A stretch of DNA of 64,000 nucleotides from an uncultured Blastochloridaceae bacterium (GTDB lineage: Bacteria; Verrucomicrobiota; Verrucomicrobiia; Methylacidiphilales; JBCBYL01): assembly GCA_964351865.1 (NCBI GenBank), contig CAYGPJ010000003.1, positions 73,553 through 137,552 of the forward strand. Reading direction: 5' to 3'. The position numbers were made by a program, and so were the translations under genes. Under the pieces are notes generated by a model. That model was not told where the DNA came from. It saw nothing but the letters and a program-made list of their open reading frames with translations, and ran no database searches. Positions 7,140-48,911 of this stretch are shown in pieces (position 1 is the first letter of the stretch; each line of letters begins with the position of its first letter).

Positions 7140-7605
7140 CGGACAGGGTGGGATGGTTCTGAAAGGCTAGCTCCTTTCATTAGTCGCTATGAGGACTACG
7201 TCTTGTTTGATATGTCACTTATGTGACAGCGACCAAACCCACATTTCGTCTTCGATTCAAGGTGGGTGAGGAACCAACCCAGACAGATTATGGCCCTAGT
7301 AGAATCGACACGGACAGGGTGGGATGACTGATTACCTTTGGTACTCATTGCGGGGAGTTTGACTTTGTTATTTGGAGCTTCGTTGGCACGAAGACCGCCA
7401 AACCCACGGGCTGCATTCAGCCTATGGCTGAACGTGGGTTCTGTGACACGGACAGGGTGGGAATGAATGATTACCTTAGGTAATCATTGTGCAAAGGTTG
7501 AGCATAGCTTATTTGAATCTTCGCTTACGCGAAATGCACCAAACCCACGGGCTGCATTCAGCCTGCGGCTGAACGTGGGTGCGAACACACCCTGTTCGAG
7601 GTAAT
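7140..7605 (-). repeat. three tandem ~140-170-bp units downstream of tRNA-Ser, each beginning with a copy of the tRNA 3' terminal 15 nt
   Basis: CGGACAGGGTGGGAT occurs at 7140-7154, 7311-7325 and 7449-7463 (the last with 1 mismatch) and in the genuine tRNA end at 7606-7620. Each unit carries an ACCCAC...GTGGGT hairpin (7237-7267, 7401-7440, 7542-7580). Confidence 0.75.
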
Positions 7606-7690
7606 CGGACAGGGTGGGATTCGAACCCACGGGACCTTGCGGCCCAATAGTTTTCAAGACTATCGCGATCGACCACTCTGCCACCTGTCC
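7606..7690 (-). tRNA. tRNA-Ser (anticodon UGA), class II with long variable arm, no encoded CCA
   Basis: The reverse complement is GGACAGGTGGCAGAGTGGTCGATCGCGATAGTCTTGAAAACTATTGGGCCGCAAGGTCCCGTGGGTTCGAATCCCACCCTGTCCG. It has acceptor GGACAGG/CCTGTCC, anticodon stem-loop ATAGT-CTTGAAA-ACTAT and T arm TGGGT-TCGAATC-CCACC. Confidence 0.9.
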
Positions 7691-7697
7691 GAGGTAA

Positions 7698-7725
7698 ACA
7701 ATAGGGAGTGCAGGCCACTGGGCAA
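7698..7725 (-). promoter_or_regulatory. candidate sigma70-type promoter of tRNA-Ser
   Basis: The minus strand reads TTGCCC (7725-7720), a 16-nt spacer, TATTGT (7703-7698), then 7 nt to the tRNA 5' end. Confidence 0.3.
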
Positions 7726-7848
7726 GTAGGAAATCTTAGGGTCTAAGAACGAGTGGTCGATTCCATCTCCCATTACCGCCCCGTCACCCGCTCGGTCTGC
7801 AGTAAGTGCCTCCGGCATGATTGGGGAATCGCTTACGCGATATGCAGG

Positions 7849-7912
7849 CTGCCACCTGTCCGAGGTAAAAATAGGGAGTGCAGGCCACTGGCCAAGGAGG
7901 AAATCTTAGGGT
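7849..7912 (-). repeat. duplicate of the tRNA-Ser 5' end (~14 nt) plus its upstream promoter region
   Basis: 7849-7912 aligns with 7678-7742 with 2 substitutions and 1 single-nt indel over ~64 nt; CTGCCACCTGTCCGAGGTAAA is identical. A further shared block TTACCGCCCCGT lies at 7773 and 7942, giving a period of ~170 bp. Confidence 0.75.
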
Positions 7913-38210: not shown

Positions 38211-38990
38211 CTATTCAACCAGGTGCTGTTGGATGTATTCGAAGCTCAAGCGCAGGGATTCAAACGGGTCGCCGGGGCACTGATCTTGTTCGACGATGAA
38301 CCACTCGCATCCGGATGCTTCTGCGGCGGCGATGATGCCTTTGAAATCCAGGTTTCCATATCCGATCTCGTGCATGATAGGCGTATTGCCCTCACGAATA
38401 CCGAGATCCTTCATGTGCAACAGCGGCAGACGTCCTGCCAGACGTTGACACCAGTCGATCGGGCTAGCGCCGCCCATCTGAACCCAGTAGGTGTCGATTT
38501 CACCCTGTAAGTTCTTGGGGTCCGTATCTGCGTAGATGCGGTCTAAGTGAGTGCGACCATCGAGCTTGCGGAATTCTAATGCGTGGTTGTGGTATGTGAG
38601 CACCATGCCTGCCTGTCGTAGGACTGAGCCGGCATGGTCGAGTGCGGCGATGAAGTTCTTAAGTTCTGCGGGGTCATCTATGTTGTAGCCGTTGGGATGG
38701 GGATAGGCGGTGTAGCGGGTGCCGAGTGTTTTAAGCGTTTCGACTACAGCTTCCGGAGTCTCTGTGATGCTGGCGGCGGGTTCGTGCGTGGCGCAAATGG
38801 TGAGACCGGCATCCGCACAGGCTGCGGCGACTTCCGCGTCATTCATTTGATCGCGGGGTGGGCGTGCGCTCACTTGCACGGCTTGATAGCCGATCGCGGC
38901 CAGTTTGTGCATGCTTTGCTGGAAGTGCTCTACGGTTTGACAATGGTCCCGGATGGTCCAGGTGATGGCGGCTACTTGTTCAATTTTCAT
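38211..38990 (-). CDS. xylose-isomerase-like TIM-barrel protein (sugar phosphate isomerase/epimerase family)
   Basis: LTYHNHALEF, LLHMKD and CEWFIVEQD blocks, 259 aa, no signal peptide. Confidence 0.8.
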   Translation of the reverse strand: MKIEQVAAITWTIRDHCQTVEHFQQSMHKLAAIGYQAVQVSARPPRDQMNDAEVAAACADAGLTICATHEPAASITETPEAVVETLKTLGTRYTAYPHPNGYNIDDPAELKNFIAALDHAGSVLRQAGMVLTYHNHALEFRKLDGRTHLDRIYADTDPKNLQGEIDTYWVQMGGASPIDWCQRLAGRLPLLHMKDLGIREGNTPIMHEIGYGNLDFKGIIAAAEASGCEWFIVEQDQCPGDPFESLRLSFEYIQQHLVE

Positions 38991-44945: not shown

Positions 44946-45239
44946 CTCAAGGCGAACGGTGTTCACATTTCTTCAGGGAATGACTTGGTGTCGGGTTCAG
45001 AGGAAATGGCGGTTGCGAAATGAATGTCCGGATCCGGATTTGAAATAGGTCTCAAAAGCGAGTGCCTTCGATTTCGAGGGGAAAGCCGAATATCACGCCA
45101 GTTTCCACGGACGGTAAGGTGAAGTTGTTGGTTCAGAACCAGAGTTATGCGACTGTACTCTGGCCTTCAAACCCCGACGGTAGCCTACGTAATATTGGGT
45201 AGGTTTTTTCTCAGACTGCAAAATGTAAACATACTGCAT
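44946..45239 (-). pseudogene. GIY-YIG nuclease-family gene interrupted by an in-frame TGA (codon 49, 45093-45095)
   Basis: Not in the ORF track because both halves are under 60 aa. My translation is MQYVYILQSEKKPTQYYVGYRRGLKARVQSHNSGSEPTTSPYRPWKLA*YSAFPSKSKALAFETYFKSGSGHSFRNRHFL.... It is colinear with the intact paralog at 47204-47446 on both sides of the stop. Confidence 0.7.
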
Positions 45240-45483
45240 GGGTTGTTTGTAACTGACACCCCTCCTTTGGTCTATAGACAGAATACAGCATTGAGTAACG
45301 CGAGGGTTCTAGAACGGGCCGTGCCTTCCATAGCTTTAGCAAAGGAGGGAGCGGACCGACATATACCTTTATACAGAGCGCTTGTCTTGATTTGCAGCGT
45401 CTTTGCAACTTTTTCAATATCATCAAACGTCCTCCAATGTGAGTAGTTTTGTTGGTATTATTGAAGTTTTTATCACGTTAGTT

Positions 45484-46704
45484 TCATTTAATTCGCTTTT
45501 GTATCTGGAAGTGCCTCTCTCGCACTTCATCAATAATGCCTTGAGGGATATTTTCTTGAGTAGCTAAATCGGGCCAATGATTGAGGGCCTGTTCAGCCTT
45601 TTTGAAGATCTCCATAAATTCCTCATTGGGAATACCAACTTGTTCAGATAGAGATTTCATGACTTGTATCGGCGGCCAGACTTCACCCGCAATAGAAGTG
45701 CCTCTTTCGAGGTATCCCTCTCCGTAGGTCATATCATAAGCAGGGGTTAAAGACCACGATTTATGAGCTTCATCATACGCAAAAGAATGGTTCTTTCCAT
45801 GATCGTCATGATTGGACGAAAGAACATTAAAGACCATTCTTCGAGTTAACTCACGAAGCTCTTCCGGATCGCATCCCAGTTTGATAATGATGCGGAAAAG
45901 ATCACTGTAATCCATGCCTGCAGGGTCCTTATGTAACATGCCGCTGGACGTATGGAAATGGAGCCGCCTCTCAGGTGTCTTGGGGTCTGGTACATCAAAG
46001 CGTTTCACCAGTAAGTGACTGCGACCAACAGAACTGTCTTCAGAAATAAGTTTCGTCGAGACAGAGCGGATACCAGCAATTTCTGCCATTTTGGCATAAA
46101 CGTGTTCTTCGGCAGCTTTGCTGTTATTGGGAGATTGGTCAAATTTAAGGATGCTAGGCTCACCTTTACCGTCAGGAGAACCGACTTTCAATGTCCCGTC
46201 AGGATAGTGGAGGATCAGGATTTTAGGAAAGGCCCCCCCGGGTGTTCCTCCTCCTTTAGCCAATTGAGGGATCACCTCTTCTGCTTCACCACGCTCAATT
46301 TCTGCAGCATTCTTCGCTAGAGCGGCAGCGCCGATTTCCTCTAGTTTTTTAGAGTTAGAATCATCTAGTAATGCAGGAAAACACTGCAAGGCACCTAGGC
46401 CTCCGGATCCACGCCATGCCAGTAGCGGCATAGCAGTAGGCTTCCCCCATTTATTTTTAGCGAATTCCCTGCGCGCGATTTTTTGACCCCATGCATCCGG
46501 CAGGCAGTCTGTGATCAGCCCCGGAAGTTCATCAATGCCTTTGCTGCCATGATACGCCTCTGGTGTAAATGGGAGGCTGATCGGAGATAGGTTATGCCCT
46601 TTCCGTAACCAGTCTTCGTCATAGACAAAATAGATAGGTCCGCGCTGGATTAGGTGCCCGACTACTGATCCATCCCACCAATGGACCTCCAACTTTTTGT
46701 CCAT
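45484..46704 (-). CDS. hipA: HipA-family serine/threonine kinase toxin
   Basis: N-terminal coupling domain (LEVHWWDGSVVGHL...LPGLITDCLPDAWG) and kinase core with SSNHDDHGKNHSF, 406 aa. Confidence 0.9.
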   Translation of the reverse strand: MDKKLEVHWWDGSVVGHLIQRGPIYFVYDEDWLRKGHNLSPISLPFTPEAYHGSKGIDELPGLITDCLPDAWGQKIARREFAKNKWGKPTAMPLLAWRGSGGLGALQCFPALLDDSNSKKLEEIGAAALAKNAAEIERGEAEEVIPQLAKGGGTPGGAFPKILILHYPDGTLKVGSPDGKGEPSILKFDQSPNNSKAAEEHVYAKMAEIAGIRSVSTKLISEDSSVGRSHLLVKRFDVPDPKTPERRLHFHTSSGMLHKDPAGMDYSDLFRIIIKLGCDPEELRELTRRMVFNVLSSNHDDHGKNHSFAYDEAHKSWSLTPAYDMTYGEGYLERGTSIAGEVWPPIQVMKSLSEQVGIPNEEFMEIFKKAEQALNHWPDLATQENIPQGIIDEVRERHFQIQKRIK

Positions 46705-46705
46705 T

Positions 46706-47011
46706 TTAGACCCCTCTCGGGTGAGAGGCCCGCTTGCGCTGTGGCGCGGTTAGATCTCTAAGCCGTAATTCCGGAGTGGTCTCTGGAATGATTGCCCCCA
46801 ATTTATCCGCATATCCCAAAACTCCCAAAGCTCTTACCGCATGGCGTAACTCAACTGTCCCATCGCCAGCCTCAATCTTTCGGTAGGTGGGAATACTGAT
46901 GCCTAGAATTTTACACATATGAGCCTGGGATAAATTTCTGCGCAACCGCTCTTTTTGGATGCGATTACCCAATTCTTCCATAGCTTCATTTTCACCTAAT
47001 ATAGAAAACAT
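46706..47011 (-). CDS. hipB: XRE-family HTH antitoxin, HipB-like
   Basis: LGNRIQKERLRRNLSQAHMCKILGISIPTYRKIEAG. The stop lies 1 nt upstream of the hipA ATG. The start is uncertain: 47074, 47011 and 46981 are all in frame. Confidence 0.8.
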   Translation of the reverse strand: MFSILGENEAMEELGNRIQKERLRRNLSQAHMCKILGISIPTYRKIEAGDGTVELRHAVRALGVLGYADKLGAIIPETTPELRLRDLTAPQRKRASHPRGV

Positions 47012-47203
47012 GGTTTCTATAAGATGGCTATAAATGGTTTTAATGCAACTAAAATTTGTATTAAAACGGTTCATCTGCAGCCGAAAACGGCAGTGATGAC
47101 CATGTCCAGCACCGTAGCGGCGGTGGTGGTGGGCGCGACTGAAAACAGATTGAGGCAGGTGTTAATGCTTACTAAGACCGGACCTACCAATTTCCAGTGG
47201 CGA

Positions 47204-47446
47204 TTAAAGCAGGTGTCGAATGGTGAATGATCTTCCTGAACCTGATTTGAGATATCTCTCAAAGGCGTCCGCTTTTTCTTTTTCCGGGAAGGCCCAGTAG
47301 AAAACGATTTTCCAGGGCATGAAATTTTTCGTTGCGGTATCTGCACCTGCATTGTGCCGGGTGAGTCGTTTCTTGAGATCCGAAGTGGAACCTTTGTACG
47401 TTTTATCGGGGTGAGATGTGGAGCGGAGGATGTAGACGTAGTGCAT
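47204..47446 (-). CDS. GIY-YIG nuclease-family protein (small stand-alone type)
   Basis: MHYVYILRS...YKGSTSDLKKRLTRHN...PWKIVFYWAFPEKEKADAFERYLKSGSGRSF, 80 aa. Confidence 0.85.
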   Translation of the reverse strand: MHYVYILRSTSHPDKTYKGSTSDLKKRLTRHNAGADTATKNFMPWKIVFYWAFPEKEKADAFERYLKSGSGRSFTIRHLL

Positions 47447-47464
47447 AGGTTGATCCTACGTCGT

Positions 47465-48044
47465 GCCCGCCTTCGCACAAGGCTTCGGCGCGAGCCTTCG
47501 TCATGATAGAAATATCGCAAATCTAATGAGTTATCGGACATTAAAACTAGAAGGCGAGCTTGCTAGCCGAAGCCTTGGCGAAGGCTAGCGGGTGACCGGA
47601 CTACGCCTAGGCTACGTCCCGGCAGGCGAGATTATCCTTACAGGTTGCACCTGTGACGCTCTGCGGAAAGCACGTTGTGATGGTTGGATTGCCTTTCAGG
47701 CATAGCAGTTCCTCCGTCGCAGAGGCTATGGAGGACACGCGAAATAGGTTCTCATTTCTTTGGCAATGATTTCCCGCCTACGCACAAGGCTACGGCGCGG
47801 ACCTTCGCCAGAAAAAGAGATTGCGAGAGTGAGTTAGGAGAGTTGCAACCAGAATCAAAAGGCGAGCTTGCTGGCCGTAGCCTTGGCGAAGGCCAGCGGG
47901 TGACGAGAGGTTATCCTCACAGGTTACACCTGTGACGCTCTGCGGGGTGCACTTCGTGGGATTTGTACTGCCGTTCCGGCATGGCAGTCGAACTGCGTTC
48001 TCATCTCGTCAGGAAATGATTTAATACCAGAAAGGTATTAAATC
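47465..48044 (-). repeat. two tandem ~280-310-bp structured repeat units between the GIY-YIG gene and tRNA-Gly, each containing a copy of the tRNA-Gly 3' end
   Basis: Unit landmarks: A motif at 47469-89 and 47776-96; B motif (inverted complement of A) at 47566-85 and 47874-93; tRNA 3' copy AGCGGGTGAC at 47587-96 and CAGCGGGTGACGAGA at 47894-908; hairpin ACAGGT-nnn-ACCTGT at 47640-54 and 47919-33. Confidence 0.75.
48018..48044 (-). terminator. hairpin immediately 3' of tRNA-Gly
   Basis: GATTTAATACC-agaaa-GGTATTAAATC forms an 11-bp stem abutting the tRNA 3' end. The U-tract is weak (ATTTCC on the minus strand). Confidence 0.45.
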
Positions 48045-48116
<72 letters not shown>

Positions 48117-48182
48117 ATCATGCGAGCTAGAAATATGGTGGAGCCTCTGAATTCTGGCAAGGGGAAAATCGGCTAATTTTCA

Positions 48183-48911
48183 TTGCTGGTATTTAAGCCC
48201 CAATCCGGTCATAACTCTTGGGTGAATACTCGCCGTCAATTGTCGCTGGCCGCATTGGTCCTGGCCAACCTGGTTCCGCTGGCCGGATGTTTTTGGTGGG
48301 AGTGGGATGCGGGTCTGATCGTGCTGTTTTTTTGGATTGAAAATCTGGTGATTGGGGCATTTAACCTGATTAAAATGGCGGCGGCTCCGGTGGATTCATC
48401 ACTTCATCATGCAGGCAAGTTATTCATGCTGCCGTTTTTCTTAATTCATTATGGCGGGTTTTGTGCGGTGCATGGGCTGTTTCTGATGGTTTTCATTAAT
48501 GGCGGGCAGGGGCCGTCTGCGCTGAATAACCTGGATGTCTCCTTTGCCTGGGGGCCGTTTGTGTTTGTGGCTCTCCTGATTGAGGTGGTGCAGCAGGCGT
48601 GGGCTCTGCTGCCAGCTGGAGCGGCATGGGGAATTGCCTCGCTGATCTTTAGTCATGGCGTTTCCTTCGTGACGCATTATTTGCTGGGTGGTGAGCGCGA
48701 GAGACTGAGGCTGAAAGATCTGATGAGCTTGCCCTATAAACGCATCGTCTTACTGCATATCGTGATCATCGCGGCCGGTGTGCCAGTCATGGCCATGGGG
48801 TCGCCGCTGCCCTTGCTGGCGTTACTGGTGCTGGCCAAGCTGGTGATGGATGCGGTGATGCATCTGCGCGAGCACCGCGAACCTGAGGTGGCGGTTACAG
48901 ATCCGCGCTGA
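48183..48911 (+). CDS. polytopic membrane protein of unknown function (DUF6498-like, tentative)
   Basis: About 6 TM segments with N-terminal LSLAALVLANLVPLAGCFWWEWDAGLIVLFFWIENLVIGAFN. There is no ATG start; the candidates are TTG 48183 and GTG 48222. Confidence 0.5.
   Translation: MLVFKPQSGHNSWVNTRRQLSLAALVLANLVPLAGCFWWEWDAGLIVLFFWIENLVIGAFNLIKMAAAPVDSSLHHAGKLFMLPFFLIHYGGFCAVHGLFLMVFINGGQGPSALNNLDVSFAWGPFVFVALLIEVVQQAWALLPAGAAWGIASLIFSHGVSFVTHYLLGGERERLRLKDLMSLPYKRIVLLHIVIIAAGVPVMAMGSPLPLLALLVLAKLVMDAVMHLREHREPEVAVTDPR

Follow-up and report, generated by a model that had tools for sequence, protein, structure and literature searches.

Positions 47465 to 48044 of the 64,000-nt stretch analyzed here (the window, to whose numbering all coordinates refer) lie on the 3' flank of a tRNA-Gly gene and hold two structured repeat units, each with a copy of the 3' end of that tRNA. 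The tRNA-Gly locus is read on the minus strand. This region is best regarded as the reiterated 5' junction of a tRNA-linked cassette with a small GIY-YIG gene, and we consider it rather probable that the reiteration arose by insertion and that the palindromic module of the junction, named H, acts as a cis element of the cassette. Such tRNA-linked GIY-YIG cassettes are widespread and apparently undescribed. The key to the identity of the element is an 80-amino-acid (80-aa) GIY-YIG open reading frame (ORF) beside unit 1, which was absent from the original prediction, an earlier description of the repeat units.

Distribution of the cassette

A one-genome-per-species scan with the family alignment gave 80 loci in about ten phyla, from Verrucomicrobiota, Acidobacteriota, Alphaproteobacteria, Planctomycetota, Lentisphaerota, Dependentiae, Parcubacteria, KSB1 and others. 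The end of a tRNA or transfer-messenger RNA (tmRNA) gene on the same strand lies at most 235 nt upstream of the ATG in 57 of these loci, which span 14 amino-acid identities as well as tmRNA. By our own estimate, for a genome of about 4 Mb with about 50 tRNA genes, a random position would fall that close downstream of a tRNA with a chance of about 0.1 to 0.2%. Arrays of the module fill a longer gap to the tRNA gene in 7 further loci, which brings the number to 64/80. Covariance model (CM) R1, built from 22 modules of other genomes and none from the window, detects H in 73/80 loci. The canonical cassette is made up of the 3' end of a tRNA or tmRNA gene, H and the 80-aa GIY-YIG gene, in this order. 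Further copies of the repeats had been anticipated, and this expectation was borne out for H in other genomes but not for X, the spacer of each unit, which has no relatives in the collections searched.

The closest relative, locus L002, encodes a GIY-YIG protein 81% identical to the window's and has a contiguous arrangement of the tRNA-Gly T-arm and 3' end, H, 20 nt and the ATG; the loop of its H is unrelated to that in the window. The original prediction took the units for locus-specific repeats that mimic the tRNA 3' end. This no longer holds, since in L002 an intact tRNA-Gly T-arm and 3' end run straight into this palindrome, with the GIY-YIG gene next in line.

The cassette has spread among tRNA loci, yet it is stable within species. 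One metagenome-assembled genome (MAG) carries two copies, at tRNA-Arg and at tmRNA (L041 and L043), and in Alphaproteobacteria a single module subtype is found after tRNAs for Val, Tyr, Ser and Leu. Tandem arrays of the module were found in L008, L029, L040, L058 and L077, with near-identical units (4 x 171 bp in L008 and 5 x 101 bp in L029). Each 171-bp unit of L008 (2325-3010, an Acidobacteriota MAG) spans the CCA of tRNA-Ala, the module and the first 14 nt of the GIY-YIG ORF, which places the amplification junction within the beginning of the gene. Our literature search returned no account of small GIY-YIG genes at tRNA ends or of the motif within the collection searched, where absence is no proof.

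Some loci depart from the usual arrangement or share more of their surroundings. The module of L023 (3237-3347, minus strand) abuts the tmRNA 3' end, and its GIY-YIG gene is on the opposite strand, convergent with tmRNA. The order rpmA-rplU (on the opposite strand), then GIY-YIG is common to L003 and L090-L092, with a tRNA-Ser(CGA) between them as seen in L003; the GIY-YIG proteins of these loci fall in different clusters. This sharing suggests that one lineage has long kept the arrangement at that tRNA by vertical descent. For the window itself, synteny was followed through the neighboring DUF6498 gene in a relative, where the contig stops before any tRNA. A type III toxin-antitoxin system, in which repeated RNA precedes a nuclease gene, was weighed and set aside, because the module is single in most loci and the fold of the protein is that of a DNA nuclease.

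Displaced tRNA ends at the tRNA-Gly locus

The order of elements on the minus strand is tRNA-Gly, hairpin T, X2, a 15-nt tRNA end with H2, X1, a tRNA end of about 12 nt with H1, and the GIY-YIG gene (Table 1). The repeat units, the tRNA 3'-end copies, the short hairpin ACAGGT-nnn-ACCTGT (47640-54 and 47919-33) and the changes in the stems called A and B, one of them uncompensated, are all present where the original prediction had placed them. The copy named att2 is a 15/15 match to the tRNA at 48044-58, and no shuffle reached the observed count. The copies had been described as following the palindrome; tRNA-Gly is a minus-strand gene, so by transcription each copy precedes it. The other copy, att1, is degenerate TAGCGGGTGACCGGA when read over 47586-47600. 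A 29-nt hairpin insert separates att1 from its tctc part, and the hairpin was therefore inserted after att1 had formed.

The tRNA-end copies of the window are best read as displaced relic junctions between tRNA and H, since in L002 the tRNA-Gly abuts H directly and tRNA fragments precede H elsewhere. Such tRNA or tmRNA 3' fragments lacking the tRNA body precede the module in L009, L012, L025, L038 and L062. Locus L016 has a 1.7-kb segment (H, GIY-YIG and small genes) between repeats that consist of the tRNA-Ala 3' end and the start of hairpin a of the module. A cassette between copies of the tRNA-Gln 3' end was found in L085 (2760-3320, a Parcubacteria MAG), with a partial copy of the tRNA 5' end upstream. 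L085 is also the sole locus seen with hairpins bracketing the gene, hairpin a before it and a c-type hairpin after it.

One scenario is that incoming DNA twice separated the tRNA body from its resident 3' end. Each insertion would have displaced the older junction downstream, and the breakpoint, at the edge of the T-loop, resembles that of site-specific integration at tRNA genes. Alternatively, a single insertion may have been followed by duplication of the X-att-H segment. The att2 15-mer starts at the last T-loop base, as do the copies of the tRNA-Ser 3' end found at a second locus of the window, and many tRNA-targeting integrases cross over in the region of this base. A distal att copy that would mark a larger island was sought and rejected: a 12/15 match at 38713 lies within an ORF, and the count of such matches agrees with chance.

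Table 1. Features of the tRNA-Gly locus and the adjoining genes, in window coordinates
Feature	Position	Strand	Evidence or details
Sigma-70-like promoter TTGCCA-17-CATATT, 5' of tRNA-Gly	48132..48160	minus	consensus match
tRNA-Gly(GCC), functional copy, CCA not encoded	48045..48116	minus	ARAGORN; Rfam tRNA 70.3 bits
Hairpin T, AT-rich (atttaatacc tttct ggtattaaat), 1 nt past tRNA-Gly	48019..48043	minus	
X2, lineage-specific structured spacer	47909..48018	minus	hairpins CTGCC/GGCAG and TCACAGGT/ACCTGTGA
att2, perfect 15-nt tRNA-Gly 3'-end copy CAGCGGGTGACGAGA	47894..47908	minus	
H2, full-length module (hairpin a 47871-47896; b 47800-47810; hairpin c 47773-47799)	47772..47896	minus	CM R1 46.3 bits, E 1.8e-8; hairpin scan
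X1, second copy of X with two additional solo hairpins	47598..47771	minus	
att1, degenerate tRNA-Gly 3'-end copy ggtcacccgcta, 10/12	47586..47597	minus	
H1, full-length module (hairpin a 47563-47588; b 47493-47503; hairpin c 47466-47492)	47465..47588	minus	CM R1 54.4 bits, E 3.2e-10
80-aa stand-alone GIY-YIG nuclease gene (Slx1/YhbQ-UPF0213 type)	47204..47446	minus	Pfam PF01541 5.7e-16
Helix-turn-helix (HTH; HipB-like) and HipA toxin-antitoxin pair between the two GIY-YIG genes	45484..47074	minus	
Remnant hairpin of a/c type, about 85 nt upstream of the second GIY-YIG gene	45322..45349	plus	CM R1 17.6 bits, E 0.027
Second GIY-YIG paralogue, in-frame TGA at codon 49	44997..45239	minus	

Architecture of module H

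The spacer between tRNA and gene begins with CCA or, at tRNA genes that do not encode it, with the last bases of the tRNA. Hairpin a is built as outer stem, TTC, GC..GC, T(T/A)C, outer stem', and is followed by CA(A/G)GCC and a variable spacer. Segment b complements the 5' half of a (helix a5:b), near-perfectly to exactly, with GAA opposite TTC. Hairpin c is the a motif inverted, YCCKCC-G(A/T)A-GC..GC-GAA-GGMGGR. The outer stem of hairpin a takes in the last 1-6 nt of the tRNA in 32/37 parsed modules; the tRNA end and the module therefore form one unit. Nested variants of the module were seen in L043 and L047.

Helices covary across the family, both in the outer and inner stems of hairpin a (e.g. 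12:26 with CG 9, UA 7 and GC 6) and in the stems of hairpin c (120:168 with CG 12 and UA 10; 132:156 with UA 11 and CG 9). The helix a5:b also covaries (8:113 with UA 15 and CG 5), and an ungapped scan found at least 11/14 Watson-Crick pairs in 43 modules, 13 of them perfect. The fold of H is constrained and not incidental. The original prediction had argued for such a functional fold, and constraint is borne out here by this covariation and by CM R1, which finds both units of the window at full length. RNAfold, which had been named as a check, places both strands well beyond shuffles (z ~ -6).

The T:A to A:T change that had been cited as covariation did not survive the comparison. Columns 30:128 across the 22 modules hold U:A in 6 and A:U in 5 and are unpaired in 11; paired in 11/22, they therefore represent two independent T/A polymorphisms. 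Each column holds the central base of an internal-loop triplet, TWC in a and GWA in c. The A and B stems of the original prediction correspond to hairpins c and a, and they are complementary because c and a are inverted copies of one motif.

On our preferred reading, H would be the cis element of the cassette, forming hairpins in DNA and possibly also in a tRNA read-through transcript. It is the likely substrate or landmark by which an Slx1/YhbQ-like structure-specific nuclease would retain the cassette at tRNA ends or put it there. A role at the DNA level is suggested by the occurrence of a and c as one motif in both orientations and by the frequent perfection of a5:b. By analogy, solo hairpins, nested variants and arrays are typical of palindromic DNA, and homologues of the protein cut branched DNA, which also points to DNA. 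A role at the RNA level is suggested by the fixed strand, by the pairing of hairpin a with the tRNA end and by AAGGAGG near the start codon. In about 11 loci the 3' strand of c reads AAGGAGG and lies 2-8 nt ahead of the start codon, and hairpin c could also mask the ribosome-binding site in part of the family.

A different account, which we regard as rather unlikely, is close to the original prediction and would explain the units as functional RNAs with a structure, produced when transcription from the tRNA-Gly promoter reads through. In this account, hairpin a would clamp the tRNA 3' end or trailer, H would be a processing and translation-control leader of the GIY-YIG mRNA, and the tRNA-end copies could act as pseudo-3' processing sites. 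The constant strand and tRNA-ORF position of the element are consistent with this account, and so are the pairing of the outer stem of hairpin a with whichever nucleotides end the tRNA, the placement of AAGGAGG, and the switch-like alternative pairings a5:a3 and a5:b. The sigma-70-like match 5' of tRNA-Gly is the sole one within 47000-48300, and scanning the minus strand of that stretch revealed no terminator-like site and no internal promoter. At the 5' end of X2, tgacgaga (48011-48004) complements the tctcgtca of both the real tRNA-Gly and att2, and in RNAfold this pairing closes a multi-branched fold, which also favors RNA. However, the opposite orientations of a and c would give chemically different RNAs (UUC/UWC versus GAA/GWA loops), and stem mismatches show no G:U excess. 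The perfect 14-nt a5:b pairing in 13/43 modules looks templated and not slowly compensated. There is also no ORF for H2 to regulate, and Rfam 15 holds no matching family: the window gives tRNA only, at the gathering threshold and at E<=10, and ten related loci give nothing on the module.

Comparison of the two units

Overall, the two units align with 77% identity. The direct repeats are D2 (47551-47596 vs 47859-47904, 93%), D3 (47466-47503 vs 47773-47810, 87%) and D1 (47628-47709 vs 47907-47988, 79%). The start-to-start period is 307-308 nt in the palindromic part and 279 nt in the X part, because unit 1 holds two additional inserts of 29-30 nt. These unit-1-specific inserts are solo hairpins of the a/c type (47710-47735 and 47596-47621). 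Identity between the units differs by segment, with 92% in the a arm, 87% in b and c, 78% in the X core and 41% in the H spacer.

The arms of H1 are identical to those of the L002 orthologue and only about 90% identical to those of H2; the spacers are saturated. Conserved arms of the two units differ at 8 positions. Two of the 8 compensate each other within the outer stem of hairpin a (CTAGCC/GGCTAG to CTGGCC/GGCCAG), and 3/8 are polymorphic loop bases. The A to G change in a5 is compensated in both of its partners, by T to C in a3 and by T to C in b (b GGCT to GGTC).

A simpler origin of the two units would be plain tandem duplication, in which an X-att-H segment of about 300 bp was duplicated once by slippage or unequal crossing-over favored by the palindromes, leaving units without a role. 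Module amplification does recur in unrelated lineages with near-identical units (L008, L029), and an 8-nt microhomology, aaatcatt, is found at the start of X2 and after H2. Nevertheless, we think such an origin improbable. It leaves the 15-nt tRNA 3' end inside the unit unexplained, and it does not fit the arms of H1 being closer to L002 than to H2. Nor does it fit the uneven divergence, 41% in the H spacer versus 87-92% in the arms, and the copies are therefore either old and selectively maintained or of separate origin. Judging from these sequence differences, H2 appears to be old or of separate origin, and insertion is therefore favored over recent slippage.

The X spacer and solo hairpins

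Spacer X comprises two hairpins as well as a block of 38 nt, which shows 92% conservation from one unit to the other. We considered X as a decayed GIY-YIG gene and rejected this, as local alignments were no better than shuffles. X as an inverted or direct pseudo-tRNA-Gly was also rejected: colinear alignments gave p ~0.02 to 0.04, a weak lead, and ARAGORN and Rfam see no tRNA there. Scans of viral contigs for X or for the junction of tRNA-Gly and H gave one chance match, within coding sequence; two metagenome scans for the same targets gave 0 matches and one chance match.

All six real a/c-type hairpins of the 64-kb window fall within 47466-47896, and the remaining hits of the hairpin scan equal the shuffle background in number. 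Among the 80 related loci, hairpins of this type cluster within -300 to 0 of the ATG and do not rise above background in other positions. The a/c-type hairpins are local to the cassette and not genome-wide repetitive extragenic palindromes (REPs); dispersal of the REP kind was rejected on these scans of the window and of the 80 loci.

The tRNA-Ser locus and possible integration at T-loops

The original prediction had also pointed to a tRNA-Ser locus with repeats of its own, and three perfect 14-nt copies of the tRNA-Ser 3' end do lie downstream of that gene. The gene is tRNA-Ser(TGA) at 7691-7605 (minus strand), and its 3' flank, 7140-7604, holds three units of 124-157 bp. Each unit contains three hairpins and ends in the perfect copy tcccaccctgtccg, which starts at the last T-loop base. 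The middle hairpins have different but fully paired stems, TTCGC/GCGAA, CTTCG/CGAAG and TGTCAC/GTGACA, and GTGGGTT, the 5' strand of the T-stem, is invariant. These units are unrelated in sequence to those at tRNA-Gly and give no R1 match. A second copy of the region upstream of tRNA-Ser together with the first ~15 nt of the tRNA (ccagtggcctgcactccctatt..tacctcggacaggtggcag) is found about 170 nt upstream (7850-7895 vs 7680-7722, minus strand). Just upstream of tRNA-Ser, 7779-7793 (minus strand) agrees at 12/15 positions with the complement of the tRNA-Gly 3' end (GAGCGGGTGACGGGG), and the count of such matches in the window agrees with chance.

Miniature integrative elements could have produced both arrays. 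The segments T-X2 and H2-X1 would then be remnants the size of a phage attachment site (attP) or non-autonomous mini-elements, inserted at the T-loop of tRNA-Gly by a tyrosine integrase encoded elsewhere, with X as the recombinase-binding arm; the tRNA-Ser array would have been built likewise. The direct repeats start at the last T-loop base at both loci, the tRNA-Ser 14-mers are perfect in 3/3 copies in units at most 81% identical, the segments are attP-sized, and X is conserved beside each displaced tRNA end. We nevertheless judge this origin quite unlikely. The regions tested hold no integrase, X has no other copy in the window, the fetched loci, the viral contigs or the Joint Genome Institute (JGI) metagenomes, and the left arms (T versus H2) are unlike each other.

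The GIY-YIG protein and neighboring genes

By profile comparison, the 80-aa protein belongs to the UPF0213/SLX1 type. The family profile matched UPF0213 protein BH0048 (1zg2) in the Protein Data Bank with E 9.4e-10 and SLX1 chains with E 9e-7 to 1.6e-4, and no NCBIfam model matches the protein. It consists of the catalytic domain only, without a separate DNA-binding domain. The family comprises 3,636 representatives of 50%-identity clusters at E<=1e-10. Many database members (P0241-P0388) are given lengths of 100-150 aa, of which the conserved 80 aa make up the C-terminal part, and the additional 25-60 N-terminal aa are most likely the result of start codons miscalled inside the palindromic module.

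The GIY-YIG ORF starts 18 nt past H1, with AGGA 9 nt before its ATG. The second GIY-YIG gene is intact over 80 codons except for its TGA, at a codon where the family has Thr or Val (PF01541 4.1e-13 with the stop masked). It is either a recent pseudogene or a case of read-through. The HipB-like/HipA stretch between the two genes has a lower GC content of 0.45-0.47, and toxin-antitoxin-type genes adjoin the cassette also in L016 and L093 (HicAB). Pfam assigned the neighboring ORFs to GIY-YIG, HTH, HipA, AraC, DUF6498, sulfatases and an oxidoreductase.

Weighing the insertion origin

Several observations count against a junction reiterated by insertion with H as the cis element of the cassette. 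No recombinase gene was found near either tRNA locus among the regions tested by Pfam, and the segments between the tRNA-end copies measure merely 135 and ~290 bp. H2 is conserved as well as H1 though it has no gene downstream: no ORF follows it, and X1, which does, bears no similarity to the GIY-YIG gene. X has no relatives in the window, in the fetched loci (blastn), in viral contigs or in JGI metagenomes. Identical GIY-YIG proteins occur in a single context across 24 contigs each, where no recent movement was seen, and the family was not found in plasmid and phage collections. Mismatches in the stems show no excess of G:T over A:C on either strand. Finally, the 80-aa protein is a predicted nuclease, and its action on H is likewise a prediction.

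A bolder possibility, which we regard as doubtful, is that the cassette represents an unrecognised class of chromosomal selfish element. A minimal Slx1-like nuclease would recognise a folded hairpin into which the final nucleotides of a tRNA or tmRNA gene, whatever its identity, are incorporated. By this means it would enter or persist at the exact 3' ends of tRNAs, with no integrase or transposase involved. The repeats of the window could then be scars of its repeated activity at tRNA-Gly.

Genes for tRNA and tmRNA are classic landing sites of mobile DNA, which have so far been explained by recombinases. The cassette puts a very small nuclease gene with a conserved palindromic leader at the exact 3' end of such genes in roughly ten phyla. 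If the cassette is mobile or guards these sites, it would be an additional player at tRNA hot spots, and H would provide a testable substrate for uncharacterised YhbQ/UPF0213-like nucleases. A practical consequence is that gene callers often translate the module into spurious N-terminal extensions, which is why many members of the family are entered with 100-130 aa, and masking the module is advisable when intergenic repeats near tRNAs are read.

Comparison with known systems

Duplicated attachment (att) sites and tandem island remnants at tRNA genes are known from integrase-mediated islands, from non-autonomous elements of the cis-mobilizable (CIME) type and from tycheposon-type arrays. The window resembles these in its direct repeats made of the tRNA 3' part, in the T-loop breakpoint and in the older junctions downstream of an intact tRNA. 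Of the two marks of att duplication, a repeat starting in the T-loop was found here and a recombinase gene was not. The window differs further in lacking an integrase and cargo, in having segments of 135-290 bp, and in that one 'arm' is a conserved palindromic module tied to a GIY-YIG gene.

Homing endonucleases offer another comparison. T4 SegB is a free-standing GIY-YIG homing endonuclease of a phage tRNA gene cluster (PMC2330249). As with SegB-type enzymes, the GIY-YIG gene lies beside tRNA genes, whose conserved DNA is a plausible target. Unlike the Seg and I-Tev enzymes, the protein described here has 80 aa without a DNA-binding domain, is chromosomal and is of the Slx1/UPF0213 type. No empty sites free of the cassette were recovered among the loci examined.

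The E. coli tyrT repeats, source of RtT RNA (RF00391), are tandem units downstream of a tRNA, each with the last tRNA nucleotides. The units of the window are likewise tandem, lie 3' of a tRNA gene and hold a tRNA end. In contrast to tyrT/RtT, with which they share no sequence or model match, their module is common to many phyla and linked to a nuclease gene.

Similarity to REPs and REP doublets (REPINs) with their REP-associated tyrosine transposases (RAYTs) lies in the short GC-rich inverted palindromes beside a small single-copy gene of nuclease type and in the local proliferation of solo hairpins. Here, however, the hairpins are undispersed, with six real hits within 430 bp of 64 kb, and anchored to tRNA or tmRNA ends. 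Their stems vary and their loop triplets are conserved, and the protein is a GIY-YIG protein (PF01541) and not an HUH Y1 (IS200/IS605-like) transposase. Integron attC sites share with H the imperfect palindromes, short conserved cores, unpaired bases, variable stems and center, and the occurrence in arrays. Unlike attC sites, H is found without an integron integrase, is fixed at tRNA ends and has a single gene type always attached.

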